In this document: piece after piece, positions 1 through 45,090 of the stretch | How positions within the stretch are numbered: position 1 is the first letter of the stretch | How the letters are laid out: each line of letters begins with the position of its first letter | Assembly: GCA_964558555.1 (NCBI GenBank) | Contig: CAZLEO010000008.1 | Location: 61 to 64,060 of the forward strand | Origin: an uncultured Rickettsiales bacterium | GTDB lineage: Bacteria > Myxococcota_A > UBA796 > UBA9615 > CAYRNR01 | Direction: 5' to 3' | Length of the DNA: 64,000 bases | Notes under the pieces: model-generated | Seen by the model: only the letters and a program-made list of their open reading frames with translations | Database searches by the model: none | What the model was told of the DNA's origin: nothing | Program-made: the position numbers and the translations under genes

Positions 1-236
1 GTGGGGCGGGGCCTGGGGGGCGTTGAGTGGCTCGGGATGCGCGAGCGCTCACAACTCGCGGGGTTGGCCTCAACCGGCCGAGATGTGAGCGGTATCCGTT
101 CATAACTCCAGGGGTTCTCGAGAACCCTCCCAGATATGAGCGACATCCGCTCATAACGTCCGGGGTTGATGCCAACCCCGGGAGATATGAGCGCTGAGCG
201 GCATCTCGGTCACGACTTGGGATGTGGGCCCGAGGC
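1..236. repeat. Copy 1 of a ~230-bp composite palindromic array (BIME/REP-like). Four units, each made of hairpin A (GATATGAGCG-n5-CGCTCATAAC) and hairpin B (GGGGTT-n6-AACCCC). It probably continues upstream of the window.
   Basis: Read directly: alternating near-perfect inverted repeats, e.g. gatatgagcgacatccgctcataac and ccggggttgatgccaaccccgg. The element is duplicated at 482-712 with >90% identity. Confidence 0.7.
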
Positions 237-481
237 ACGACGCTGATGAGCAAGGTGCCGCTGGGTGAGGTGGAGACCTATCGGTAGGGCTTCGACCGCC
301 CGTCGCCTGGTGAGCGTGCCCCGGTGCTCGACCGCGTCAAGGGCGAGTCGCTCCGCGACTCGTCGGCTTCGCCGATGTCGCCTTCGGCTCCACCCCTGAC
401 CCGGTCTGCGCTCCGGGGCCTGTGGGTGGGTGGCGACGGGGGAAGGATGGCTGATCTTGGCTCGGGAGGGATGGATGGGGG

Positions 482-712
482 GGTGGGGCCTGGGGGGCGT
501 CATGAGGCTCAGGATGCGCGACCGCTCACAACTCGCGGGGTTGGCCTCAACCGGCCGAGCTGTGAGCGGTATTCGCTCACAACTCCAGGGGTTCTCGAGA
601 ACGCTCCCAGATATGAGCGATATTCGCTCATAACGCCCGGGGTTGATGCCAACCCCGAGAGATATGAGCGTTGAGCGGCATCTCGGTCGCAACTTGGGAT
701 TTGGGCCCTCAG
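482..712. repeat. Copy 2 of the composite palindromic (BIME/REP-like) array.
   Basis: Near-identical to 1-236. It sits between ~150-bp imperfect inverted-repeat arms (328-480 and 780-935). The outer 24 bp of those arms, GTGCTCGACCGCGTCAAGGGCGAG, are a perfect reverse-complement pair at 328-351 and 912-935. Confidence 0.7.
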
Positions 713-1026
713 ACCCTCCGCCGACGGGGTCTCCAGTCGACCAACCAGGCCTTCGCCCTCCAAGCCACGAATCACCCCCCAAGGCCACCCCCCATCCATC
801 CACCCAGAGCTTGATCTCGCCATCCCTCCCCCCGTCGCCTGCAATCCACAAGCCTTGGCGCGCAGGCCGGGTCAAGGGTCGCCGCGGAGCGGCGACGGGC
901 GGAGCCCGCTCGCCCTTGACGCGGTCGAGCACCATGGCACCCTGTCACGGCGACGGGCGGCCGCCGCTCGAGCCTTCGCCCCACATGGAATGCTATCGTC
1001 CAGGTACCCGGGGAGGAGGTGGTCGG

Positions 1027-2079
1027 ATGTGTGAGGGGATGCGGTGGGTGGCTGCCTTCGCCCTGGCTCTGGGGGTGGCGGGGTGCTCCGATTCAGATGC
1101 TCGCGGTCCGATCGTGACTGACGACGATGACTCTGGCGACGACGTCGATGATGACGACGACGAGACAGGTGACGACGATCTGGCCGACGACGACTCTGGC
1201 GACGACGATTCGGGTGACGACGATTCGGGCGACGACGACGCTGTTGAATGTGCGCCGTGTGTCGGGGATTTCACGGTCCTCGACGAGATGGACCTGGCGA
1301 CGCTGGCCCGTTGTTCGAGCGTGACGGGAACCCTGGACATCATCGATCAGCAGTGGCTGACCGAGGTGGATCTGCCGTGCCTCGAGTCGGTGGATGGGGA
1401 TGTGAACATCACGGACAACTGGGATCTCGGCAGCCTGAGCTTGCCGAGCCTCACGTGCGTGGGCGGCGGCATGGGCATCGCTGACAGCTACTTCTTGACG
1501 AGCATCGACCTCGGTAGCCTCACGACGGTGGAGTACTCACTGAGCCTGGCCAACGTGATCGATCTCCAGAGCCTGGATCTCCATGGACTGGAGGCCGTGG
1601 GTTGGGACCTGTCCATTCACGGAGCCGACGAGCTCACGGTAGTCAGCCTCCCCGCGCTCGAATCCGTGGGCTGGGGGCTCTACGTGGGTAGCAACGACTC
1701 TATCCACACCATCGACGGAATGAGCGGTCTGACCACGGTGTGGATACTCTCCCTCACCCATAATCCGGCGCTGACCGATCTCGAAGCTCTTGCGGGCCTC
1801 GAGTCCCTGCCCGGATACATGACCATCCACGCGAACGACACCCTGATAGACCTTCGAGGTCTCGAGGGCATCGAGACCATTGGCGGACTGCTGTCCATCT
1901 CCGAAAACGATCTACTTCGCGACCTCAGTCAGCTTTCGAGCCTGACGTCCGTGGATGACCTGTACATCTACGACAATCCCTGCCTGAGTCAGTCCGATGC
2001 AGAGTCCTTTGCGAACGGACTCCAGGTCGCCGGCGAGATCGAGATCTACGACAACGGCGCAGCCCACCCCTGTCCATGA
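1027..2079 (+). CDS. Lipoprotein with an Asp-rich acidic linker and a leucine-rich-repeat / receptor-L-like repeat domain.
   Basis: Signal peptide with lipobox (MRWVAAFALALGVAGC). GGAGGAGG lies 9 nt upstream of the ATG. D-rich 21-bp DNA repeats (DDDSGDD x3), then repeated L-x-x-L-x-L-x-x-L/V blocks. The annotated 5' extension back to 643 overlaps the repeat array and is probably not translated. Confidence 0.6.
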   Translation: MCEGMRWVAAFALALGVAGCSDSDARGPIVTDDDDSGDDVDDDDDETGDDDLADDDSGDDDSGDDDSGDDDAVECAPCVGDFTVLDEMDLATLARCSSVTGTLDIIDQQWLTEVDLPCLESVDGDVNITDNWDLGSLSLPSLTCVGGGMGIADSYFLTSIDLGSLTTVEYSLSLANVIDLQSLDLHGLEAVGWDLSIHGADELTVVSLPALESVGWGLYVGSNDSIHTIDGMSGLTTVWILSLTHNPALTDLEALAGLESLPGYMTIHANDTLIDLRGLEGIETIGGLLSISENDLLRDLSQLSSLTSVDDLYIYDNPCLSQSDAESFANGLQVAGEIEIYDNGAAHPCP

Positions 2080-2095
2080 CAGGGAGCGTCTCTGC

Positions 2096-2479
2096 TCAGA
2101 TCATCATCGGCAGGAACGACACGATCGCCACGGCGATGGCGCCCAGCAGGATCAGGTTCGCCGGGACGATGTGTCGGGAGACCAGACCCGAGCGTGGCGA
2201 GGACTTGCCCGACTTGACGCGGGAGAGGTCGACCGCGGCGAGCAGCAGCGACAGCGGGGTCGCCAGGAGCGCGAGGGGGCCGGTGAAGGCGCCGAAGAGG
2301 CCGATGGCGGCCGCGGCAGCGGCGAGGGGAGAGGCCTTCTGGTCCCGGTCGTCGGCGCCGAGGTAGCGCATCAGCGCCAGGATGTAGATGAAGATCCAGA
2401 CGAGCGCGGCCAGGGACAGGACGACCGAGCCGATGACGGCGCCGGTGATCTCGAGGGGCCCCAGGGCTTGCTGTTCCAT
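2096..2479 (-). CDS. Small polytopic membrane protein, hypothetical.
   Basis: 127 aa with 3-4 hydrophobic helices. It is convergent with the upstream lipoprotein gene. Confidence 0.45.
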   Translation of the reverse strand: MEQQALGPLEITGAVIGSVVLSLAALVWIFIYILALMRYLGADDRDQKASPLAAAAAAIGLFGAFTGPLALLATPLSLLLAAVDLSRVKSGKSSPRSGLVSRHIVPANLILLGAIAVAIVSFLPMMI

Positions 2480-2503
2480 GTCTATCCTCGGGGCGGCGCC
2501 CGC

Positions 2504-3295
2504 CTACCAGATCTTCCACCAGGGTTTCTTCTCGCCGGCCTCCCCGTCGGCCTCCTTCGGCATCGCCGAGAGTCGCCGCGGCGCCTTGCCGGTGACCTGG
2601 CAGTTCCGGCCGGGGACGATGCAGCGGTCGAAACCCTCGGCGTCGAGGACGTCGAGCAGGGCGTCGGTGCCCTGTTCGAGCTTCAGGGCGCATTCCGGGG
2701 TGGTGATGGGCACCATCCACAGTAGATGGATCGGGTCCCCCTCGGAGACGATGGGACTCAGCGGCGGTTCCTCGAGCACGGGTTCGAGGAAGAGGACGGT
2801 GCTCAGCAGGGTGGAGGGCACGTAGGGCGTGGGTGGATCGCCGTTGGGGATGGTGTGGCCGGGCCCGAGCCAGGTGTTGTACTCGTGGGGGAAGCGGGCG
2901 AGGAACTTGGCGTTGCGGAACGGCCACCAGTCCTCTTCGCGGCTGTCGGAGCCTTCGGGCAGGGGCCAGTCGGGGGGCAGGTAGAACAGGATCTCGGCGA
3001 AGCGGCGTTCCTCGAGCTCGTCGGGGACGGTCATGGGGCGGTCGCTCAGGCCCATGGTGACCACCGTGGTCCAGTCGCGCTCCGCGGTGGGCGGGTAGAT
3101 GTAGAGATCCACGTGGACCGTCTCGGAGATGATCTCGTGAAACACGCTCGGCTCGGCGCCGAGGGCAGCTTCCAGGGCCGCCTCGAGGGCCTCGCGGCGG
3201 CGAGGATCCACGTCGTCGGGGAGGCGGCCGTCCGAGGTCGGTCCCTGGTCGTGGCGATAGAGCTTGGAGCCTCCGGGTGAGTCCTGTTCGGTCAT
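2504..3295 (-). CDS. Suppressor-of-fused (SUFU)-like domain protein.
   Basis: DWTTVVTMGLSDRPM and surrounding motifs are typical of the bacterial SUFU-like family. There is a 4-nt overlap with the upstream gene. Confidence 0.6.
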   Translation of the reverse strand: MTEQDSPGGSKLYRHDQGPTSDGRLPDDVDPRRREALEAALEAALGAEPSVFHEIISETVHVDLYIYPPTAERDWTTVVTMGLSDRPMTVPDELEERRFAEILFYLPPDWPLPEGSDSREEDWWPFRNAKFLARFPHEYNTWLGPGHTIPNGDPPTPYVPSTLLSTVLFLEPVLEEPPLSPIVSEGDPIHLLWMVPITTPECALKLEQGTDALLDVLDAEGFDRCIVPGRNCQVTGKAPRRLSAMPKEADGEAGEKKPWWKIW

Positions 3296-4386
3296 GGTGT
3301 GTCCCCTCGGGTGAGTGAGAACGATACCTCAGCCTTGCCGACCCCGTTGACGATCACGGCCAGCCCGTGTTCGCCGGGGTAGTGTTTGCGGGTGGACAGA
3401 TCGGCCAGGGAGAGCTTGCGCTTGACCAGGTGTGCGCCGGGTTCGAGCACGGCTTCCTTGATCTGGAAGATCTTGCCGGAGCGCTTGCCGCGCGCCTTGA
3501 CGTAGTCGACGCGGTATTCGAGGCGGACCTTGCGGGCGGCGTCCTCGTCGTTGTGCAGGTCGAAGGTGAAGTGGAGGTGGCCGCCGATGGGGACGCTGTC
3601 CGCGCTGAGGGAGAGCTGCTCGACGCGCAGGCTGGCGGGATCGGCGAAGCCGAAGATGCGCATGGCGCGGGGATCGCCGGCCTTGAGCAGCGTGCGGCAG
3701 GCGTGCTTGACGATCCAGTCGGTGCGGTCGGAGCTGCCGATCCAGCGCGCGGCGATGTCGAGGACGAGGTCGGGGTGGTCCTTGGAGATGTCGTTGAGGT
3801 TGTTGGCCACGGACCGGCGGACGTAGTCGGCCGGGTCGTCCTTGAGGGCCTCGAGGACGGGCAGGATCGGCGCGGGATCGGCCTTGAACGCCGGCAGGGC
3901 GGGGGCCCAGGGCAGGCGGGGCCGACACCCCTCGCTGGCGAGCCGGCGCACGTGCTCGTTGTCGTCGCGGGTCCACTCCAGCATCACCGCCATGGTCGCC
4001 GCGGTGTCCGCCTGGATGAACGGGCGGATCGCGAACTCGCCGCTGCCGTAGCGGGTGAACAGGCGCAGCGCCGGCAGGGAGAGATCCGGGCGGCCCTGTC
4101 CGAAGCAGAAGACATACTCGCTGAGCACCATGCCCATGAAGCCGTCGGTCTGCTCGGCGGTCCGCGCGAGGACGTCCAGGGCGCGTCCGTAGTCGTCGAA
4201 GACCTCGCCCAGGCCCAGGGCCAGGTGTCGCATCCGCTCCTTGAGCTCGCGGTCGGCCCAGCGTCCGTCGAGGACGAAGGCGATGTAACGGTCCCGGTCG
4301 AAGGTGGGCTCGGCCGCGGCCAGGCCGTCGGCGAAGCGGTGGACGTCGGGGGGGAGGAGGAGCTTGTCCTTGAGTTTCTGTGCCAT
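3292..4386 (-). CDS. DNA alkylation repair enzyme (AlkD/AlkC-like HEAT-repeat glycosylase family) with a C-terminal extension.
   Basis: VRRSVANNLNDISKDHPD-type HEAT motifs. A GGAG Shine-Dalgarno sequence precedes the ATG. Confidence 0.5.
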   Translation of the reverse strand: MAQKLKDKLLLPPDVHRFADGLAAAEPTFDRDRYIAFVLDGRWADRELKERMRHLALGLGEVFDDYGRALDVLARTAEQTDGFMGMVLSEYVFCFGQGRPDLSLPALRLFTRYGSGEFAIRPFIQADTAATMAVMLEWTRDDNEHVRRLASEGCRPRLPWAPALPAFKADPAPILPVLEALKDDPADYVRRSVANNLNDISKDHPDLVLDIAARWIGSSDRTDWIVKHACRTLLKAGDPRAMRIFGFADPASLRVEQLSLSADSVPIGGHLHFTFDLHNDEDAARKVRLEYRVDYVKARGKRSGKIFQIKEAVLEPGAHLVKRKLSLADLSTRKHYPGEHGLAVIVNGVGKAEVSFSLTRGDTP

Positions 4387-4408
4387 GGGGGACTCCGGGT
4401 GGTGCGCG

Positions 4409-5032
4409 TCAGAGTAGCCCGTACCCCAGCCGGGACGCCACGTTGCACAACATGAAGTGGAAAGCAGGGTCGTCGAGGCGGCGGTTGATCTCTGGATGGG
4501 CGGGTAGGGCGTCCTCGGCCCGCTCGCACAGAGCCGCGGAGGGGCGATTGGCGGCCATGGAGGAGGGATAGAGGACGCCGTCGACGTCCGGGTAGGCGGC
4601 GTGAATCCGCCTGGACCAGCGCCGGGATCGCGGGCGCGGACCCGTACTCAGGGCCATGGAGGCGCCTACACGTGTGGGCCAGGGCCCGGTGAGGTCGAGC
4701 AGCGTCACGTCGCGCGCGAGTCCAAATCCGGCGAGCCACGGGTTGGCGCGCGTCCGCTGGATGACCCGTGTGTCCTGGAAGACCTCGGCCAGGCAGGTCG
4801 GACCTTCCCCGGCGGCGTAGAGGATGCTCCGATCCTGGTCGTGAGCAGGCGGCTCGTGGTGATCGAACCGGCTGTGGGTCGGCCCCCAGGAGCGGAAGCG
4901 ATTCCAGAACGTGGGGTGACGGCCTCCCTGGAAGTAGATCCTCCACAGGAGGGTGCCCCGGGGCAGGATGTGGACCGCGGCCGGGATCTCCGCCAGATCG
5001 GCCGCCGGCGGGGGTTCGGGGAACTTCGCCAT
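4409..5032 (-). CDS. RES-domain toxin of a RES-Xre toxin-antitoxin pair.
   Basis: RES domain signature (LWRIY...R, FDHH, ILYAAGE, TCLAE). It starts 2 nt after the upstream HTH gene. Confidence 0.75.
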   Translation of the reverse strand: MAKFPEPPPAADLAEIPAAVHILPRGTLLWRIYFQGGRHPTFWNRFRSWGPTHSRFDHHEPPAHDQDRSILYAAGEGPTCLAEVFQDTRVIQRTRANPWLAGFGLARDVTLLDLTGPWPTRVGASMALSTGPRPRSRRWSRRIHAAYPDVDGVLYPSSMAANRPSAALCERAEDALPAHPEINRRLDDPAFHFMLCNVASRLGYGLL

Positions 5033-5033
5033 G

Positions 5034-5627
5034 TCAGAGGCTGGCGGCGATGGAGACGACCGGCTCGACCGGCAGCCTGAGGCGGAGCCAGGTCAGGGGA
5101 CTCAACGGCGCGGGCCGGTCCTCGTGCCGCAGATCCGGGCACGCGGTGGTGATCCAGCGGTAGACCGAGACCAGGTCCAGCTCGGGATCGAGCGCGGCGA
5201 CGACCTCTTCCATGCCGGGCACGAGGCCGTCGTCTTCGAACTGGAAGGCGGGGAACCGCCAGCCGCGACTCGCGCGGACACCGTAGAGCGTCCGTGGCTT
5301 CGACCCCACGCGCTGACGGATACGGCTCGGATTTACGCCGAGCTGGCTGGCGGCCTCGGCCGTGGTCAGGCTGGTGCGCAGCAGCGCCGCCAGCTCGGCC
5401 ACGGTCTCCGCGAGCACCCGGTCCGAGTCTGCGGGCTCGAGATCAAAGCCGCCGCGCTCCAGGGTAGCGGCCTCGTGTCTGGAGAGACCCGCGGCCGGCC
5501 TCTCCGGGACGAGCGCGACGGGTAGTTGATCGACGGCCTCGCGGACCATGAGTCCGAGCTCGTCCGGAGACACGCCGATACCGTGGACGTGCAGGTAGGC
5601 GCGGGTCGAGGGATCGGACGGTGGCAT
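5034..5627 (-). CDS. HTH-containing putative antitoxin (Xre/MbcA-like) cognate to the RES toxin.
   Basis: HTH segment AEAASQLGVNPSRIRQRV. Immediately upstream of the RES gene and tightly coupled to it. Confidence 0.6.
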   Translation of the reverse strand: MPPSDPSTRAYLHVHGIGVSPDELGLMVREAVDQLPVALVPERPAAGLSRHEAATLERGGFDLEPADSDRVLAETVAELAALLRTSLTTAEAASQLGVNPSRIRQRVGSKPRTLYGVRASRGWRFPAFQFEDDGLVPGMEEVVAALDPELDLVSVYRWITTACPDLRHEDRPAPLSPLTWLRLRLPVEPVVSIAASL

Positions 5628-5713
5628 GTTCGGCTCCGTTAACGGTGATTATCGACGTTAGATCTCGTTAACAACGTAACACGGAACCGGAAATCGGAGA
5701 AGGAGAACGTGCC
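5628..5713 (-). promoter_or_regulatory. AT-rich leader with a repeated palindromic CGTTAAC(G) motif. Candidate promoter/operator of the TA operon.
   Basis: ccgttaacggtgattatcgacgttagatctcgttaacaacgtaac carries two GTTAAC palindromes ~25 bp apart in an otherwise GC-rich genome. Confidence 0.4.
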
Positions 5714-6790
5714 TCAGTCCGTCCTTCCATCCCCCCGCTGGGCGATCCGGGAGGCCCTCATCAACGCCTCGAAGACCTCGGTGACGCCGCCGGGAGCGAG
5801 GTTGTGGGTCTCTCCCCAGGTGCGGCGGTCCTCGAGCATGCGGCGCTCCCGATCGGGATCGAGGACGCGGCGTCCGGTGGCGGCCTTGGCCGCCCCGGCC
5901 TGGCGGGCGAGCTGCACCCGGCGACCCATGAGCACGACGATGGCCTCGTCCACCTCGTCGATCAGGGTGCGGGCCTCCGCGAGGTCAGGGGAGGCCTCGC
6001 CGAGATCGGGGATGGCCAGGGCCCGGCGGGTCTCCAGGGTCGTGTCGGCGGAGGGTTCGGCGAGGGCGGCCTCCTCGAGCTCGTCGTCGATGTTCTGCAG
6101 CGCGTCGATGAATGCGCGCCGCGCGGCCGCGGCGTGGGGGTTCTCCAGCTGGATGGCCGCGAACAGGTGACCGGCGTCCCAGCGCACCGTCTCCACGGTG
6201 CGGTTCATCGCCTTGTACGACGGCGGCGAGAACGGGACGGCCTCGTCCGCGTCCGTGTCCAGCGCCAGCAGCCCCTTGGCCAGGAAGAACGCCAGGGCGT
6301 GGGTGCGGGCCATGAGCCGGTCGTGGGTGTCCGCGTCGGTCTCGACCACCTGGCATTCGATGGACTCGAGGAAGGTCCGCGCCTGCGTTGCCGCGTCGGG
6401 GTGGACCGGGTTGGGGCAGACCACCACCTCCAGCGGCCGCTCGCCGCGGGACAGCGACGCCGGCCCGAACAGCGGGTGCGTGCCGATCCAGGGGATGTCT
6501 CCGCCCAGGGCCCGCTCCATGGCCTGGATGGGCTCCACCTTGACGCTGGCCACGTCGATCACGAGCTGAGCCGGGTTCAGCGCGGGGCGAAGCTCCGTCA
6601 GGACCGGCCCCATGACCCCGATGGGCACGGCGACCACCACCAGCTGCGCGCCGTCCACGGCGGCCTCGAGCGTGGGCGCCATGGCCGACTCGGCCCCTGG
6701 ATCGTAGGCGGTGAAGGTGTGACCGGCCCGCACGATCAGGCCGGCGAAGGCGCGGCCGAAGCGGCCGTATCCGATGAGCGCGATGTGCAT
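5714..6790 (-). CDS. tyrA: Bifunctional prephenate dehydrogenase / chorismate mutase.
   Basis: N-terminal NAD-binding GYGRFGRAF and a prephenate dehydrogenase core. The C-terminal chorismate mutase helices include EAIVVLMGRRVQLARQAG. Confidence 0.85.
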   Translation of the reverse strand: MHIALIGYGRFGRAFAGLIVRAGHTFTAYDPGAESAMAPTLEAAVDGAQLVVVAVPIGVMGPVLTELRPALNPAQLVIDVASVKVEPIQAMERALGGDIPWIGTHPLFGPASLSRGERPLEVVVCPNPVHPDAATQARTFLESIECQVVETDADTHDRLMARTHALAFFLAKGLLALDTDADEAVPFSPPSYKAMNRTVETVRWDAGHLFAAIQLENPHAAAARRAFIDALQNIDDELEEAALAEPSADTTLETRRALAIPDLGEASPDLAEARTLIDEVDEAIVVLMGRRVQLARQAGAAKAATGRRVLDPDRERRMLEDRRTWGETHNLAPGGVTEVFEALMRASRIAQRGDGRTD

Positions 6791-6842
6791 GGGGGATCGT
6801 GTACCAAGTCGCTGCCTAAATGACCATGCGGGAGCTTCGGAT

Positions 6843-8254: not shown

Positions 8255-8821
8255 TCACTGCGCCGTGGTGCACGCCCCGTTGCGGCACTTGCCGCCGGCA
8301 CACTCGGAGTCGGAGTAGCAGCGCCCTCCAGCGGTGGTGCACTGGCCGTTGCGGCACTTGCCGCCGGCACACTCGGAGTCGGAGTAGCAGCGCCCACCGG
8401 CGGTGGTGCACTGGCCGTCGCGGCACTTGCCGCCGGCGCACTCGGAGTCGGAGTAACAACGGCCGCCAGCGGTGGTGCATTCGCCGTTACGGCACTTTCC
8501 ACCGGCGCACTCGGAGTCGGAGTAGCAGCGGCCGCCAGCGGTGGTGCATTCGCCGTTGCGGCACTTGCCGCCGGCGCATTCGGAGTCGGAGTAGCAGCGG
8601 CCTCCAGCGGTGGTGCACTCGCCGTTGCGGCACTTGCCGCCGGCGCATTCGGAGTCGGAGTAGCAGCGGCTCGGTGCGGGCTCGCACTTGCCCTGCTTGC
8701 AGCGCCCGTCATCGCAGTCTGCGTCCGTGGTGCAGGGTGGGGGATCGGCGGCGCGGGGCATTCCGGGGAGGAGGAGCACGGCCAGGAACAGGCCGGCGGC
8801 GAGGGTCCAGGGACATCTCAT
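8255..8821 (-). CDS. Secreted cysteine-rich repeat protein (Myxococcus-type Cys-rich repeat; 7 tandem 20-aa repeats).
   Basis: Signal peptide MRCPWTLAAGLFLAVLLLPG. GGGGAG Shine-Dalgarno sequence. Seven copies of GGRCYSDSECAGGKCRNGECTTA, encoded by 60-bp DNA repeats. Confidence 0.7.
   Translation of the reverse strand: MRCPWTLAAGLFLAVLLLPGMPRAADPPPCTTDADCDDGRCKQGKCEPAPSRCYSDSECAGGKCRNGECTTAGGRCYSDSECAGGKCRNGECTTAGGRCYSDSECAGGKCRNGECTTAGGRCYSDSECAGGKCRDGQCTTAGGRCYSDSECAGGKCRNGQCTTAGGRCYSDSECAGGKCRNGACTTAQ
8258..8665. repeat. Seven tandem 60-bp coding repeats inside the Cys-rich protein gene.
   Basis: The repeat unit is near-identical at the DNA level, so it is recently expanded or homogenised. 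Confidence 0.8.
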
Positions 8822-9506: not shown

Positions 9507-12500
9507 TTACCGCTTGCAGGGGTGGTCGGGTGCGGGATCGGACACGACTGGACCCCCGTCTCGCCAGACCACCGGGACGCTGGACCAGACGTCCTCGACG
9601 ACGTCGCAGTACGGGCGTTCGAAGGTCCGCAGATCCACGATCTGGGCGTCGCCGAGCTCGGTGGCGGCGTGCAAAGTCGGGCCGTCGATCCGCAGGTGGG
9701 TGACCGCGCCGTGTAGCTTCTCGGTGTGGAGCCGAGCGCCGTCTCGGAGGCTCCACAATCCGAGGGTCCCGTTGCCGAAGCCGGCCACGAGGGTGTCCAT
9801 CGGTCCCGTGCGCAGGGAGGTCACGGGGCTGGAGGGCAGGTCCTCCAGCTCCAGAGTCGGGCCGTGGGCGGAGGCTCCCGACGTGCGCACCGCGATCGCG
9901 CCGTCCCGATAGCCCTGGACGCTCGTCCCGTCCACCCGATGCACCGCGGTCAGCCCCGTGCCGACGTCCCACTGCGAGAGCTGGGCCCCGTCGGTGCCCA
10001 GGAGGTGGGCGCGGTCGTCTGCGATGGCCAGGACCCCCTCGGGATCCCCGGAGATCGCCGAGACCCCGGACAGCGCCCTGGTCCAGCGGCCATCGAGGGA
10101 CAGCGTGTGCACCTCGCCGGCGGCGTCGAGGACCGCGCAGCCGCCCGCGTGTGCCACCAGCGCGGTGGCCGGAGGAGCCCGGTCGTCCGCATGGGGGCGA
10201 TCGGCGGCGGTGTCCCAGATCCACAGGCGTCCGTCCTCCGAGTAGGAACAGACGTGAGAGGCGTGGGACGCCGCGAGCACTGCGTCGGACTGGACGTGGT
10301 CGCGCCAGGCCGCGCTGGGGGGCGCGGAGCCGGGCTCGTCGGGGCGCTGCCAGCCGCGGTGGGTCAGCAGCTCGACCGGGGAGTCCATCATCAGCCGGGT
10401 CCACCAGGCCGGTCGGCCGTCCTCGGTGTGCCACAGGCGGACGGTGCCCTCGTCTCCGGCGGTCGCCGTCCAGTCGCCGTCGGGGCTGAATGCGAGGTCG
10501 ACCACGTCGCGCAGGTGCCCCCGCATGATCGTGGACTCCGATCCGTCGAGCGGCACGACCGCCGCGGTCCCGTCCCCGCAGGCCACGCCCACGCGCTGGT
10601 CGTCGGGGTGGTAGGTCACGGTCCAGTTGACGTGCGGTAGGCCGGTGTCGGCGCGCAGCTCGACGCGACCGTCGCCGTGAGTGTCGAGGATGCTCAGCAC
10701 GTCCCCTTCTCCGCTCACGGCCAGGTGAGAGCCGTCCTCGCTGAACTCCACGTGCACGGGCCAGGGGCCCACGTCCACGGCGCGCATGTGCCGGCCTCCG
10801 TCGATCCGCCAGAGGTGCACCTTTCCGTCGGTCGCCGCGCCGGCGAGGAGGCGCCCGTCCGGACTGACGTCGATCCCCCAGACTCCCGCCCCGCCCGTAT
10901 CCAGTGAGAGCCCCCGCTCGAACGCCGGGAGGCTCCACTGGTGGATCTCTCCAGACCACCCGCTGGAGTACAGCGTGTCACCGCCATCGGCGAAGCGGAC
11001 GTCGTACGCGCCCGACTCCCGCGCGGGGGACCGGGCGAGGAGTTCGCCGGAGTCGAGGTCCCACAGGTACACCACGCCGTCGAGGCCGGCGGCCACGACC
11101 CTGCGGCCCGTCGGGTCGACTCGCACGCGCGCGAAGCCGTCCTCCGGACCCGCGAGACTGCGCAGCTGTTCGCCGGTTTCCACGTCCCAGATCCGCACCG
11201 TTCCGTCGTAGCTCGACGAGAGCAGCCATCGGCCGTCCGCGGAGAAGGCCACGCCGTCGACCGTGCTGTCGTGGCCGCGGGCCGTGGTCGGCGCGGGTGT
11301 ACGGTCCAGGTCCCACAGCCGCACGGTCTGGTCCCGACCGCTCAGCGACGCGACGTGGCGGCCGTCCGGCGCGAAGACGACGCGCCGAATCCAGCCGTCG
11401 TGGCCCGCCACCGTGCGCCGGAGCTCGCCGGTGGTGACGTCCCAGATGTGGATGGCCCGGTCCTGGCCGCCCGTGGCCAGCTCGCGGCCGTCCGGCGAGA
11501 ACGACACCCCCCACAGGATGTCCGTGTGGCCCTCCAGATCGAGGCGCAGTTCCCCGGTCTGGGGGTTCCAGAGCTTGACGACATGGTCGCGGCCCAGGGA
11601 GGCGAGCTGCTCGCCGTCGGGGCTGAACCGGACCATGTGGATGCGCTGGGAATGTCCTTCGAGCGCGCGGATCTGGGCGCCGGTGGCCGCATCCCACAGG
11701 CGCACGGTGGCGTCCGAGCTGGCCGTGGCGATCCAGCGCCCGCGGGGGTCGAAGTCCACCGTGTGCGCGATGTCCTCGTGACCGACGAGATCCAGCCGCG
11801 CCTCGCCCGTGTCCGTGTGGAAGATCCGCGCGCGCTCGGACCAGCCGACGACCCCCAAGGACGCGCCGTCAGCGGAGAACCGCAGGTCGTTGATCTCGCC
11901 GAGCTCGGTGTCCACGGTGCGTGTGTCGCCGCCGGCGAGGTCGCGCAGGATGACGGTGCCCAGGCTCGTCCCGGACGCCAGCCAACGACCGTCCGGAGAG
12001 TAGGCGACGGCCATGTACAGCGCGTCGATGTCGCGCAGGATCTCCGACTGGCCGGAGGAGACGTCGAAGACCTGCACTGCGCCGTCGGCGCGGCACACGG
12101 CGACGGAACCCCCGTCCGGTGAGAACGCCAGGTCGTATGGGGCCGCCGGCAGCTCGTGATGCCAGACGAGGGGCTGTCGGCTCAGGCTCCACCACAGCGC
12201 TCGGGCCGTGGCCGAGTCACGGGTCTCCAGGGCGTTTCGCAGCCTGGCGCGGGCTTCCAGGAGGTCGCCACGCAGGTTCGCCGTCCGGGCGCCCTCGAGC
12301 ATGGCCGTGGCCTGACCCTCCTGGGCCAGGTCCCGCTGGCGGGCCGTGCGGTGATTCATCCATCCCAGCACGGCGGCGAGCGCGATCAGCGCGGCGAACC
12401 CAGCCACCAGGAGGCTCCGCCGTCGTCTCACACGCGCCCGCTCCTGGCGGCTGCCGACCACGAGGAACTCCATCGCCACGTGGGGCAGGCCGGACATCCG

Positions 12501-38991: not shown

Positions 38992-39594
38992 CTACAGCGG
39001 CACCGCCGGCCCGTCGGCCGGGTCGTCCTCGGGGAGCGTCTCGTCGAGCTCCTGCATCAGGCCGGGGTCGTGCAGCAGCTCCATCAGCAGTTCCGTGAAC
39101 TCGTCGGCCTTGTCCACGCAGAAGTACATGTTGCCGAGGAACTCTTCGCGGTCGATGAGGGCCGTGGGGAACTCCAGCGACACCACCGGCTCGAACGTCT
39201 CGTCCAGCCCCACCTTCACCTGGTTCCAGTTGAAGTTCATCCGCCCGATCACCGCGAACAGCGCCAGGTTCAGCCGCTCGTTGCGCTCCCCCAGCAGCTG
39301 GGTCACCGGCCGCAGCCAGACCACGTACGTCGTGAACGTCTCCTCGAACTCCACGTACACGTCCCACGACCGGTCCTCGACGTCGCTCGCGAACGGCAGC
39401 TTCCACAGCCCGTACTGCGCCTTCACGTCCACCCGTTGCCGCTCGTAATGCAGGTCCTGCTCGTCCATCCACCCCTCGAGCAGCTCCACACTCGGCGTCG
39501 GCTTCGCCTCCCGCAGATTCTTCCGCGTCACCCCACACCCCACCAGCAGCGGCACCACCACCACCACGGCCATCCACCTCGCCGGAATCCTCAT
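38992..39594 (-). CDS. Hypothetical lipoprotein, co-directional with and upstream of htrA.
   Basis: MRIPARWMAVVVVVPLLVGC. GGAGGGAGG Shine-Dalgarno sequence. Confidence 0.5.
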   Translation of the reverse strand: MRIPARWMAVVVVVPLLVGCGVTRKNLREAKPTPSVELLEGWMDEQDLHYERQRVDVKAQYGLWKLPFASDVEDRSWDVYVEFEETFTTYVVWLRPVTQLLGERNERLNLALFAVIGRMNFNWNQVKVGLDETFEPVVSLEFPTALIDREEFLGNMYFCVDKADEFTELLMELLHDPGLMQELDETLPEDDPADGPAVPL

Positions 39595-39699
39595 CGCCAG
39601 CCTCCCTCCGAGGGAGTGCAGAACCAGGGCAGGAACACGAGACCCTCTCCCCTTCAACGTAGCATTCGGCCCCCTGTCCCCCAAAAACACCCCCCATGC

Positions 39700-39890
39700 C
39701 AACTAACTCCCGAGATGGCCGGCATCTCGCCCACAAGTTGGCATCGATGGGGGGAAGGGTATGGATAGTGCCCGAGCTGTGGACAACCCTGCGGGTTGCC
39801 CCCAGCTCGTTGGATAACCCCTTCGGGGTTACCCACACTCTCCACACCCTCGACGACTACAAAAAAAAAGAAAAAATGAGCTCTAGGGAA
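39700..39890. repeat. REP-like hairpins downstream of the RAYT gene, plus an atypical A-rich tract.
   Basis: ATGCCAACT/AGTTGGCAT inverted repeat. Hairpins caaccctgcgggttg and aaccccttcggggtt. acaaaaaaaaagaaaaaatg occurs in a ~70% GC background. Confidence 0.45.
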
Positions 39891-39977
39891 TCGTCGTCGC
39901 GGCGGTGGGCATGTGGGAAACCACGGAGAAAAGCGGCGTGACACGCCATGTCCACGGCCGATCCCCCAAGCCTTCGG

Positions 39978-40748
39978 TCACCCCAGCCGCGCCACCGCCA
40001 CCTCGATTCCCATCCGCAGCAACACCGCCTCGAGTTCCCGTTCCTCGACGGGTCGCTTCGACAGCTTCCTCGCGGCTTCGCGGGAGATGTGGAGGGCTGC
40101 CGTGACATCCCGGGTCGGGAGGCCAGCCTCTCGGCCGAGCGCCACGACCAGGGCCTTAGCGTGGGTCTCGGGTGCGGTGCGGCCGGAGAGGTCTGGTGGC
40201 GCGTTGGCCACGAATGACGCCGCAGCGGTCAGGGACTCGACATCGGCGCCGCGCAGCTGTCTCACGTCGAGCTGGCGGACTCCTTGGGGATTCAAGCCGG
40301 CCGATCTCCAGGCCTCGGCCGGCCGGTACCTCGGCAACACATCGGGGATGCGCAGCTCACAGATGACCCGCGCACCGACGATGTCCGGGAACGCACTGCC
40401 CGACCACAGCGCCGGGTGCGCGTCGAGGCCGTGCTTGGCTGGCTGCTCGATGGTGTAGCCAACGAGCCTGAGCAGGTGGGCCCGGCTTTCCACCGGCTTG
40501 ATGTACGGTTGCTCGAATTCCCTCCCGGCGATCGGCCGCAAGCCCAGGAGCAGGGCCCGCGACAACTTGCCCGCTGTCGCTCGGTCGCAGACCACCACCA
40601 CGTGCAGGTGGTCGTCGACGATGCCGAATGTGATCAGATGGGGGCCGGCCCGCTGGACCACGACGGCGACGGCAGCTCTCCGCTGACGCTCCGTGGGGAA
40701 CAGGGGGTGGCGGCCGTCCGAGGAGAACCTCAGATGCCAGATTTCCAT
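39978..40748 (-). CDS. REP-associated tyrosine transposase (RAYT; IS200/IS605 Y1 HUH family) with a C-terminal HTH-like extension.
   Basis: HUH motif DDHLHVVVV. Catalytic Tyr motif GYTIEQPAKHGL, compared with E. coli RAYT YIYINPVKHGWV. Confidence 0.65.
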   Translation of the reverse strand: MEIWHLRFSSDGRHPLFPTERQRRAAVAVVVQRAGPHLITFGIVDDHLHVVVVCDRATAGKLSRALLLGLRPIAGREFEQPYIKPVESRAHLLRLVGYTIEQPAKHGLDAHPALWSGSAFPDIVGARVICELRIPDVLPRYRPAEAWRSAGLNPQGVRQLDVRQLRGADVESLTAAASFVANAPPDLSGRTAPETHAKALVVALGREAGLPTRDVTAALHISREAARKLSKRPVEERELEAVLLRMGIEVAVARLG

Positions 40749-44964: not shown

Positions 44965-44982
44965 AGCGTCCCTGGTTATAAC

Positions 44983-45090
44983 GTTCCCACGGGGACCGTG
45001 GGAACGAGGAATCTGGGAATGGGGACCGTGGGAACGAGGAATCTGGGAATGGGGACCGTGGGAACGAGGAAATAGGAGAGGAATGGGGGA
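44983..45090. repeat. Perfect palindrome GTTCCCACGG-GG-ACCGTGGGAAC followed by three tandem 30-bp direct repeats (GGGGACCGTGGGAACGAGGAATCTGGGAAT).
   Basis: Read directly from the sequence. Located between the tatC stop and the start of the large secreted-protein gene. Confidence 0.8.

Follow-up and report, generated by a model that had tools for sequence, protein, structure and literature searches.

The 64,000-nt stretch of contig CAZLEO010000008.1 analysed here (the window), from an uncultured bacterium, opens with non-coding DNA (1-1026) that lies upstream of a lipoprotein gene (1027-2079) and carries two copies of a tandem palindromic array (1-708). The analysis showed that these arrays are probably repetitive extragenic palindromic (REP)-like repeats that co-occur and co-diverge with a divergent family of REP-associated tyrosine transposase (RAYT)-like proteins, Y1 HUH enzymes acting on single-strand DNA, a member of which is encoded at 39978-40748. 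The best reading of the whole is a REPtron-like system, a variant that does not belong to any described REP family. The coordinates of the features are collected in Table 1.

Array architecture and the RAYT-like enzyme

Alignment showed that a 229-nt segment occurs twice in direct orientation (3-231 and 480-708) with 91% identity. The similarity sets in with the first base of the window, so that copy 1 may be cut off by the window edge, and has faded by about 250/728. Tandem Repeats Finder (TRF) returned a period of 51 nt with 2.9 copies at 46-193, and six full 51-nt units (46-96, 97-147 and 148-198; 523-573, 574-624 and 625-675), about 72-74% alike, could be aligned gap-free. The unit is composed of a 46-nt imperfect palindrome, CGCTCAYAAC-N4-GGGGTTS-N4-SAACCCC-N4-GATRTGAGCG, and a 5-nt spacer. 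Because such palindromic units stand in tandem, two dyad centres alternate along the array: hairpin A (TGAGCG-N5-CGCTCA), which bridges the unit junctions, and hairpin B (GGGGTT-N6-AACCCC), at the unit centre. The hairpin A core was found at 86, 137, 563 and 614 and at no other site with 0-1 mismatch; the composite A-to-B pattern had four matches against 0.00 expected, and GGGGTT-N6-AACCCC with up to one mismatch had three against 0.08 expected. These patterns, far above chance, confirm the duplicated array of two alternating hairpins upstream of a lipoprotein gene that the original prediction had described. The four units per copy that it counted were roughly right, but they consist of three full units and one degenerate terminal unit (GAGCGGCATCTCGGTCACGACTTGGGATGTGGGCCC; ~184-246 in copy 1 and ~661-724 in copy 2) rather than four equal ones. 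The terminal unit is of the CATCTCG/CTTGGG type, as flanks the RAYT-like genes of relatives.

Hairpins A and B had been assigned to each unit, and both dyads are present, but the better-conserved pairing is the 46-nt hairpin within the unit, with 85.8% of the cells paired over the six units. Three compensatory pairs were found in this hairpin, at 7-40 (U-A/C-G), 13-34, and 21-26 (G-C/C-G), and the covariation score of the six units was matched by only 2 of 500 shuffles; this covariation is supportive, not decisive, because the six units amount to three near-duplicate pairs. The predicted hairpin energies in array copy 1 were -19.5 to -32 kcal/mol, and the 25-nt A hairpins and 46-nt unit hairpins together spanned -10 to -32 kcal/mol. 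The predicted fold of the array was more stable than that of shuffled sequences on both strands (z = -7.2 on the plus and -5.9 on the minus strand), with energies of -136 kcal/mol (plus) and -114 kcal/mol (minus), a difference of ~22 kcal/mol in favour of the plus strand that is due to G.T/G.U pairs. This difference may be taken as a weak hint that one strand matters. Between copy 1 and copy 2, changes between G.U and G-C pairs were seen.

In keeping with REPs, the units are short imperfect palindromes able to form a stem-loop, and they are extragenic. No gene was called at 1-730 of L001, an independent Joint Genome Institute (JGI) assembly (sample 3300009008) identical to the window over 297-1026, and the sole open reading frame (ORF) called across the locus (P0001, 241 aa) had no homologue among 5.8 billion proteins. 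P0001 is a spurious ORF to which the array gave rise in the public protein set.

Homology searches with the product of 39978-40748 found 51 homologues, one of which is named RayT by JGI. In an alignment of 27 sequences, D45, D46, H47 and H49 (DDHxH, the HUH motif), R89 and Y98-x3-Q102 were invariant; Y-x3-Q is the active-site signature of IS608 TnpA. The AlphaFold model of the window protein (pLDDT 96.5, pTM 0.92) has a helical C-terminus, and its best Protein Data Bank match in Foldseek was 4er8_A (E = 7.5e-4, probability 1.00), in which the Escherichia coli RAYT is bound to a REP hairpin; the ISDra2, IS200 and IS608 (ISHp608) TnpA proteins came next. Weak matches to the NCBIfam model REP_Tyr_transpos were obtained for 19 of the 27 family members (best E = 2.3e-5) and to Pfam Y1_Tnp for three. 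The helix-turn-helix (HTH) domain HTH_23 was weakly matched by seven of the 27, the window protein reaching E = 0.0057, below cut-off. Judging from the motifs and the structural model, the product is a divergent RAYT-like Y1 HUH enzyme with an HTH-like C-terminal extension. The RAYT gene postulated at this position is thus supported by the HUH/YxxxQ residues and by the 4er8 structure match, though it lies below curated thresholds. By tblastn, the gene has one copy in the window, and no remnant of it was found between the arrays.

Repeats beside the RAYT-like genes and their relation to the window arrays

About a dozen of the 51 homologue loci (L numbers denote metagenome or genome contig loci and P numbers proteins), coding for proteins 36-85% identical to that of the window, were examined. 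The results showed that a tandem palindromic array lies beside the gene in all ten of the other homologue loci sampled, with a period of ~51 nt in nine and of 62 nt in one (Table 1). The period of 51 nt and the organisation as a long palindrome plus short spacer are common to the window arrays and the RAYT-flanking arrays. In the window, a REP-like unit, GCCAACTTGTGGGCGAGATG-CCGGC-CATCTCGGGAGTTAGTTGGC, is located 234 nt downstream of the RAYT-like gene. As the unit of L056, the closest relative, has the same sequence, the gene-proximal array comprises one unit in the window and four in that relative. Cross-locus matches among the RAYT-associated arrays (583 kb) fell only beside RAYT-like genes or in the arrays of the window. 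The arrays of L049 and L051, whose proteins are 44% and 36% identical, had no match at the window's arrays or gene flank, and the downstream array of L054/55 gave non-significant matches to the window only (E >= 1.2). On these comparisons, the failure of distant arrays to match fits repeats that diverge together with the enzyme. The copy-number differences among relatives, together with identical units at some loci, point to recent unit-wise amplification.

Table 1 Features of the window and arrays at the loci of RAYT-like homologues
Feature	Position	Strand	Period and copies	Location and basis
G-rich leader, array copy 1	1-45	+		Homologous to 478-522; cut off by window start
Array copy 1	46-198	.	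Three head-to-tail 51-nt units	TRF period, inverted repeats, hairpin energies, pair counts
Degenerate terminal unit, copy 1	184-246	+		nhmmer: L039 array matches 193-246; L046 and L037 arrays match 193-223 and 131-223
Left arm	293-482	+		G-rich, abuts array copy 2; core 323-347; inverted repeats and alignment
G-rich leader, array copy 2	478-522	+		Copy 1/copy 2 alignment
Array copy 2	523-675	.	Three 51-nt units	Repeats, A-to-B pattern, folds; reproduced in independent contig L001
Degenerate terminal unit, copy 2	661-724	+		L039 array match 610-702 (E = 0.0062), L043 array match 649-707
Right arm	788-963	-		Reverse complement of 293-482; core 909-933; inverted repeats and alignment
Single REP-like unit	39696-39744	-		Inverted repeat; L056 array match E = 4.4e-19; top match for L037 and L043 arrays
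Divergent RAYT-like Y1 HUH enzyme, 256 aa	39978-40748	-		Motifs, structural model, weak profile matches; C-terminal helical HTH-like extension
L037 (P0004)	9731-9929		51 nt, 3.9 copies	71 nt upstream of gene
L039-42 (P0015)	4051-4174		51 nt, 2.4 copies	3 nt downstream of gene
L046/47 (P0023)	5015-5164		51 nt, 2.9 copies	65 nt upstream of gene
L043-45 (P0012)	10786-10925		About 51 nt, 3 hairpin pairs	Just downstream of gene
L051/52 (P0049)	3226-3374		51 nt, 2.9 copies, units 100% identical	Downstream
L051, second array	103-279			Two genes away from P0049 gene
L054/55 (P0036)			51 nt	Both flanks of gene
L049 (P0030)	9670-9897		62 nt, 3.7 copies	Upstream
L056 (P0003, 85% identical, closest relative)	1892-2099		51 nt, 4.1 copies	Downstream
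L057 (P0005)	4623-4774		51 nt, 3.0 copies	Upstream

The arrays of homologue loci were used as queries against the window in a search space of 128 kb, the queries being related to each other. The three best window matches of the L039 array were 610-702 (the best of all), 193-246 and 39713-39747, and the same three places (610-702, 193-246 and the RAYT flank) ranked top with the L037 and L046 arrays. The L043 array matched 39696-39750 and 649-707. Aligned by eye, GAGATATGAGCGACATCCG of the window and GAGATGAGCGGCATCTCG of L037 differ by an indel of 2 nt, and the indel moves the pairing out of the GAGATG/CATCTC register and into TGAGCG/CGCTCA. Within the window arrays it is the terminal unit alone that the gene-proximal unit resembles; the arrays of relatives match both places.

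A number of results weigh against a REP-RAYT relationship. The matches of the array queries were singly marginal (E from 0.006 to about 1), and the direct match between 199-223 and 39720-39744 had E = 1.5. As to cognate recognition, the main A/B units differ from the unit beside the window's RAYT-like gene. High copy number defines REPs, and several REP loci per 64 kb are expected in classical REP-rich genomes, whereas neither unit type had a second locus in the 64-kb window beyond the arrays and the unit at 39696-39744. The exact pattern was absent from the GTDB representative genomes and from viral contigs, and no translated array ORF besides the window's own was present among the 5.8 billion proteins. 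No GTAG or GTGG (the GT[AG]G foot) was found at the hairpin foot, the arms being CGCTCAYAAC and GATRTGAGCG (GTTRTGAGCG on the other strand). On the protein side, the window protein had no match to Pfam Y1_Tnp (PF01797) and scored 12.3 bits (E = 0.11) against NCBIfam REP_Tyr_transpos (NF047646), the cut-off of which is 80 bits; because both thresholds are missed, it is not a RAYT by curated sequence models. Finally, the resemblance to the bacterial interspersed mosaic elements (BIMEs) of E. coli, which are likewise intergenic mosaics of clustered palindromic units in which dyads of two kinds alternate, is incomplete. In BIMEs, Y and Z REPs follow one another in alternating orientation, joined by defined linkers, and are bound by IHF or gyrase, whereas here the units are direct repeats and the alternation is only the geometric result of tandem palindromes. 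Since the units stand head-to-tail, the arrays are not BIMEs in the strict sense, and of the REP/BIME-like array proposed in the original prediction only the REP-like and RAYT-linked part, with arrays at ten homologue loci, was upheld.

Even so, the same three spots recur with every closer-homologue array query. It was concluded from these sequence matches that the arrays at 1-708 are probably diverged members of the RAYT-flanking repeat family, situated 39 kb from the gene.

The exact pattern also had no match in a first metagenome scan, in a collection that evidently does not hold the JGI sample with the locus. A further metagenome scan used two TGAGCG-N5-CGCTCA palindromes 28-40 nt apart, a pattern that imposes the core but not the period or architecture, and gave 18 loci. 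Five of these represent four distinct sites with 71-76% GC (L019 12740-12930, L022 3225-3310, L024 5125-5300, which equals L026, and L025 3565-3750) on contigs Ga0187892 and Ga0187893, where a hairpin AAGTGAGCG-N5-CGCTCACTT alternates with a different second hairpin at a spacing of 49-51 nt. In the raw ORF listing the arrays at the four sites appear to fill gaps between convergent genes, and no RAYT-like gene was found in the few kilobases around them. Other tandem palindromes with TGAGCG-N5-CGCTCA were seen in the unrelated metagenome contigs L020, L030, L028, L034, L021, L027 and L029; their periods are 26-28 nt (e.g. GTCGTGGGTTGAGCGGCACTCGCTCA), and one adjoins a tRNA-like sequence.

Some further features were noted around the RAYT-like genes. 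A conserved motif TTGGATA(A/G)CCC-TTCGG-...TATCCA/TTACCCACAC..CTCCACACCCTC follows the REP-like unit in the window (39784-39850) and in L043 (10975-11022), oriented one way to the RAYT-like gene in the window and the other way in L043; array and motif seem to form a module. Between the RAYT-like gene and the hairpins of the window there is an A-rich tract, CAAAAAAAAAGAAAAAATGAGC, at 39852-39880, which is unusual in a genome of ~70% GC. In L057, a second gene (5831-6817, 328 aa) with a faint Y1_Tnp match lies beside the gene for the RAYT-like protein P0005, on the opposite strand. L040 carries a cassette resembling a diversity-generating retroelement (215-2125; HRDC, bAvd and RVT_1 genes) ~5.6 kb from the gene for the RAYT-like protein P0015, which is ~60% identical to the window protein and comes from the same metagenome sample as the window's organism.

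The inverted repeat around copy 2 and rival explanations

Copy 2 is bracketed by imperfect inverted arms, which are 72-87% complementary with one 15-nt indel. Arms of ~150 bp whose ends form a perfect 24-bp pair at 328-351/912-935 had been proposed; arms and a perfect core do exist, but the arms measure ~190 nt (293-482 against 788-963) and the core is 25 nt at 323-347/909-933. The left arm runs directly into the G-rich leader of copy 2, and the right arm begins 79 nt past the array and ends 63 nt ahead of the lipoprotein start codon, copy 2 itself ending 320 nt ahead of it. As single-stranded DNA, 285-970 was predicted to fold into one giant hairpin (z = -18.3). Searches of the rest of the window and of 583 kb from related loci found no further copy of the arms. 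An inverted duplication driven by the palindromes is the probable origin of the inverted repeat.

The product of 1027-2079 has the lipobox LALGVAGC, an Asp-rich linker, a Pfam Recep_L_domain (E = 4.9e-6) and a weak LRR_4 match, and no orthologue closer than 39% identity was found. The search of 1-1026 gave neither a sigma-70-like promoter nor an intrinsic terminator, and a regulatory effect on the lipoprotein gene is speculative because no promoter-like or terminator-like site was found. A sigma-54 promoter upstream of the gene was also considered and rejected, GG-N10-GC being lacking at 936 and 987.

A structured RNA and an operator array had been named as alternatives in the original prediction, and both were graded less likely because the same array type adjoins unrelated genes wherever the RAYT-like gene occurs. 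If the arrays were a double-stranded DNA binding platform (operator- or enhancer-like) for a dimeric regulator of the lipoprotein gene, the palindromic sites would recur every 25.5 bp and, 51 bp being ~5 helical turns, A and B would lie on opposite faces of the helix. The regular spacing of palindromic half-sites, the location upstream of 1027-2079 and the HTH-like C-terminus of the RAYT-like family, which could bind double-stranded DNA, agree with such a platform. It is nevertheless unlikely, given that arrays built in this way accompany the RAYT-like gene rather than any particular neighbour gene, that 1-1026 has no sigma-70-like promoter, and that the 320 nt between copy 2 and the start codon include an inverted-repeat arm; the lipoprotein offers no close orthologue for comparison. 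If the arrays were transcribed, as a small RNA or as a long 5' leader to the lipoprotein mRNA, the resulting structured RNA with its multiple hairpins would account for the strong predicted fold with its more stable plus strand and for the G.U/G-C pair changes between copies. However, palindromic DNA folds in this way on both strands, transcribed or not; no Rfam family reached its gathering threshold anywhere in the window, and at E <= 10 the matches in 1-1100 were of chance level only; and no promoter or terminator was found. A structured RNA is thus held to be very unlikely.

Two further alternatives are built on the inverted repeat. As a non-autonomous element resembling a miniature inverted-repeat transposable element (MITE), 293-963 would have terminal inverted repeats of ~190 bp, carry the array as cargo and be moved by an unrelated transposase. 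The long inverted repeat with its perfect 25-nt core around copy 2 is what such an element would have, but the arms, which have no second copy in the window or the 583 kb of related loci, are only 72-87% complementary and leave copy 1 outside, and no target-site duplication was noted, although no search was aimed at one; we regard a MITE-like origin as quite unlikely. An inverton, in which the 25-nt repeats at 323-347/909-933 would serve as recombinase sites around a 561-bp segment for phase variation of the surface lipoprotein, would fit the geometry and the type of neighbour gene, and assemblies do break nearby (L001 ends at 297 and L002 at 893). Yet neither contig end falls on the inner edge of a core repeat, the two assemblies show a single orientation, the segment has no promoter-like site inside, and no recombinase was identified, the window not having been scanned systematically for one. 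Known invertons are unlike arms that extend ~190 nt at low identity, and phase inversion is accordingly rated as highly improbable. The least probable explanation, to which we give hardly any credence, is an assembly artefact, in which a repeat at the end of a contig was joined wrongly or duplicated. The locus does lie at or near a contig end (the window covers 64,000 of 64,569 bp), copy 1 was found only in the window's own contig, and several assemblies break or carry runs of N in such arrays. Artefactual duplications are normally near-identical, however, and the collapsed repeat that had been considered was discounted because 297-1026 is identical in the independent JGI assembly, and because 9% of positions differ between the copies and 13-28% between the arms.

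Three other candidates were rejected. The segments between the A repeats are conserved hairpins and not the unique spacers of a CRISPR. The differences between copies are not adenine-specific, as those of a diversity-generating retroelement would be, and no reverse transcriptase was seen beside the locus, the window not having been scanned for one. Although four frames are open, which would suit a protein-coding repeat of 17 aa (51 = 3 x 17), the amino acid is changed by 10 of 11 substitutions in the open plus-strand frame, and a six-frame pseudo-protein query found only the window's spurious ORF among the 5.8 billion proteins.

Known systems, proposed mechanism and other features of the window

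A REPtron is said to be, following Nunvar in 2010, a RAYT gene flanked by its own REP/BIME sequences. The arrays and gene of the window resemble it in having a single gene for a Y1 HUH protein of RAYT fold, clustered hairpin extragenic repeats that diverge with the protein, and related repeats also away from the gene. They differ in that there is no GT[AG]G guide, the 51-nt units stand head-to-tail with a conserved period, and the protein is sub-threshold with an HTH-like extension. REPtron-type RAYT/REP systems were treated by Ton-Hoang 2012 (as cited in PMC6006769). In a REPIN, a doublet of REPs makes up a hairpin (Bertels and Rainey 2011, PMC3116915). The 46-nt unit is similar in consisting of two ~21-nt inverted arms round a 4-nt loop. 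REPINs exceed the present units in length, mostly stand alone and number tens to hundreds of copies, whereas the units here are in tandem and at one remote locus in 64 kb.

Among the TnpA-Y1 proteins, canonical GT[AG]G REPs occur beside subclasses 2.2, 2.4, 2.5, 2.7 and 2.8, atypical structures beside subclass 2.6 and class 3, and no REP-like sequences beside 2.1 and 2.3 (Quentin 2018, PMC6006769). Subclass 2.1 has a C-terminal HTH_23-, HTH_28- or Bac_DnaA_C-like domain (PMC6006769) and corresponds to the TIRYTs, whose genes lie between terminal inverted repeats that mostly carry GGGGWSAS (Di Nocera 2013, PMC3733652). The window protein is likewise a Y1 protein related to RAYTs, and its C-terminus may hold a domain of the HTH_23 kind, but it is accompanied by tandem hairpin arrays and not by inverted repeats round the gene: no inverted repeat brackets 39978-40748, GGGGWSAS occurs on one side of the gene only, and it is absent from 1-1026, including the arrays. 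Four of the 24 GGGGWSAS matches of the window lie within 460 nt on that side (39527-39984, minus strand); they have no inverted partner across the gene, and some fall within the neighbouring ORF.

IS200/IS605 elements and their non-autonomous derivatives, the palindrome-associated transposable elements (PATEs), likewise depend on a Y1 HUH enzyme, which acts on subterminal single-strand hairpins, and the 51-nt two-dyad unit is comparable to a minimal left-end/right-end pair. The window's gene differs from IS200/IS605 in that it looks single-copy and vertically inherited among related metagenome-assembled genomes (MAGs). Known PATEs are far larger than the 51-nt units.

The mechanism that we propose is modelled on E. 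coli TnpA(REP) and IS200/IS605 TnpA: the RAYT-like enzyme would bind the hairpins while the DNA is single-stranded, such as in the template of the lagging strand. It would cut and rejoin at the hairpin foot or the spacer, so that whole 51-nt units are gained or lost, and cutting and rejoining might occasionally seed a new intergenic site or relocate units. The locus at 1-708 would be a remote, older site, its units being ~72-74% and its copies 91% alike. For the ~190-nt inverted repeat, the simplest origin would be that the left flank was duplicated in inverted form by fold-back (template switching), set off by the palindromic array, and that the arms have diverged since. If the hairpin block also affected the lipoprotein gene, by insulating it or by stabilising RNA, that effect would be secondary.

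More tentatively, the arrays and the RAYT-like gene could represent an undescribed REPtron-type system of uncultured GC-rich bacteria, in which an HTH-bearing Y1 HUH clade amplifies a minimal two-dyad element in steps of exactly 51 nt. That period, which is kept even where the unit sequences are no longer recognisably related and recurs in the apparently separate TGAGCG-core arrays of other metagenomes, might then be a structural ruler of the enzyme-DNA complex; we consider this possible but would not yet favour it. The HTH-bearing RAYT-like clade is invisible to the Pfam and NCBIfam cut-offs. REP-RAYT is the best-known case of a domesticated transposase that maintains a population of short repeats in bacterial genomes. 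If the proposal is true, the REP-RAYT association reaches a divergent HTH-bearing clade in uncultured lineages, with a different repeat grammar (tandem 51-nt palindromic units without a GTAG foot) and with a length constraint, a conserved period without a conserved sequence. Recognising such arrays helps annotation because they break metagenome assemblies and yield spurious ORFs such as P0001.

Contigs were seen to start, end or carry runs of N inside arrays at L038 1-69, L048 2-45 and L055 1-157, and further breaks or runs of N occur at about 4082-4180 and 5308-5400 of L054 and at the starts of L001 and L002. Such breaks fit repetitive or tandem DNA.

Beyond the lipoprotein gene, 2504-5627 holds a SUFU-family gene, a HEAT/DNA_alkylation-like gene, and a RES-domain gene with an adjacent 197-aa ORF that has no Pfam match. 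The SUFU-family product is possibly an immunity-type protein, which is a guess, and the 197-aa ORF possibly encodes the antitoxin of the RES-domain gene. In three related MAGs, whose prephenate dehydrogenase/chorismate mutase fusion (PDH) is 68-74% identical, the whole 1-5700 region is absent next to the PDH gene, and it therefore looks like a variable region. Two other tandem repeats were noted in the window. At 44976-45071, in a short gap between long minus-strand ORFs, there are three perfect 30-nt repeats, GGGGACCGTGGGAACGAGGAATCTGGGAAT, with a ~9-bp stem (TTCCCACGG/CCGTGGGAA), which may be either an array of operator type or a further small palindromic repeat. The tandem repeat at 8265-8670 (69-nt period, 5.9 copies, 92% match) is likely to be coding.

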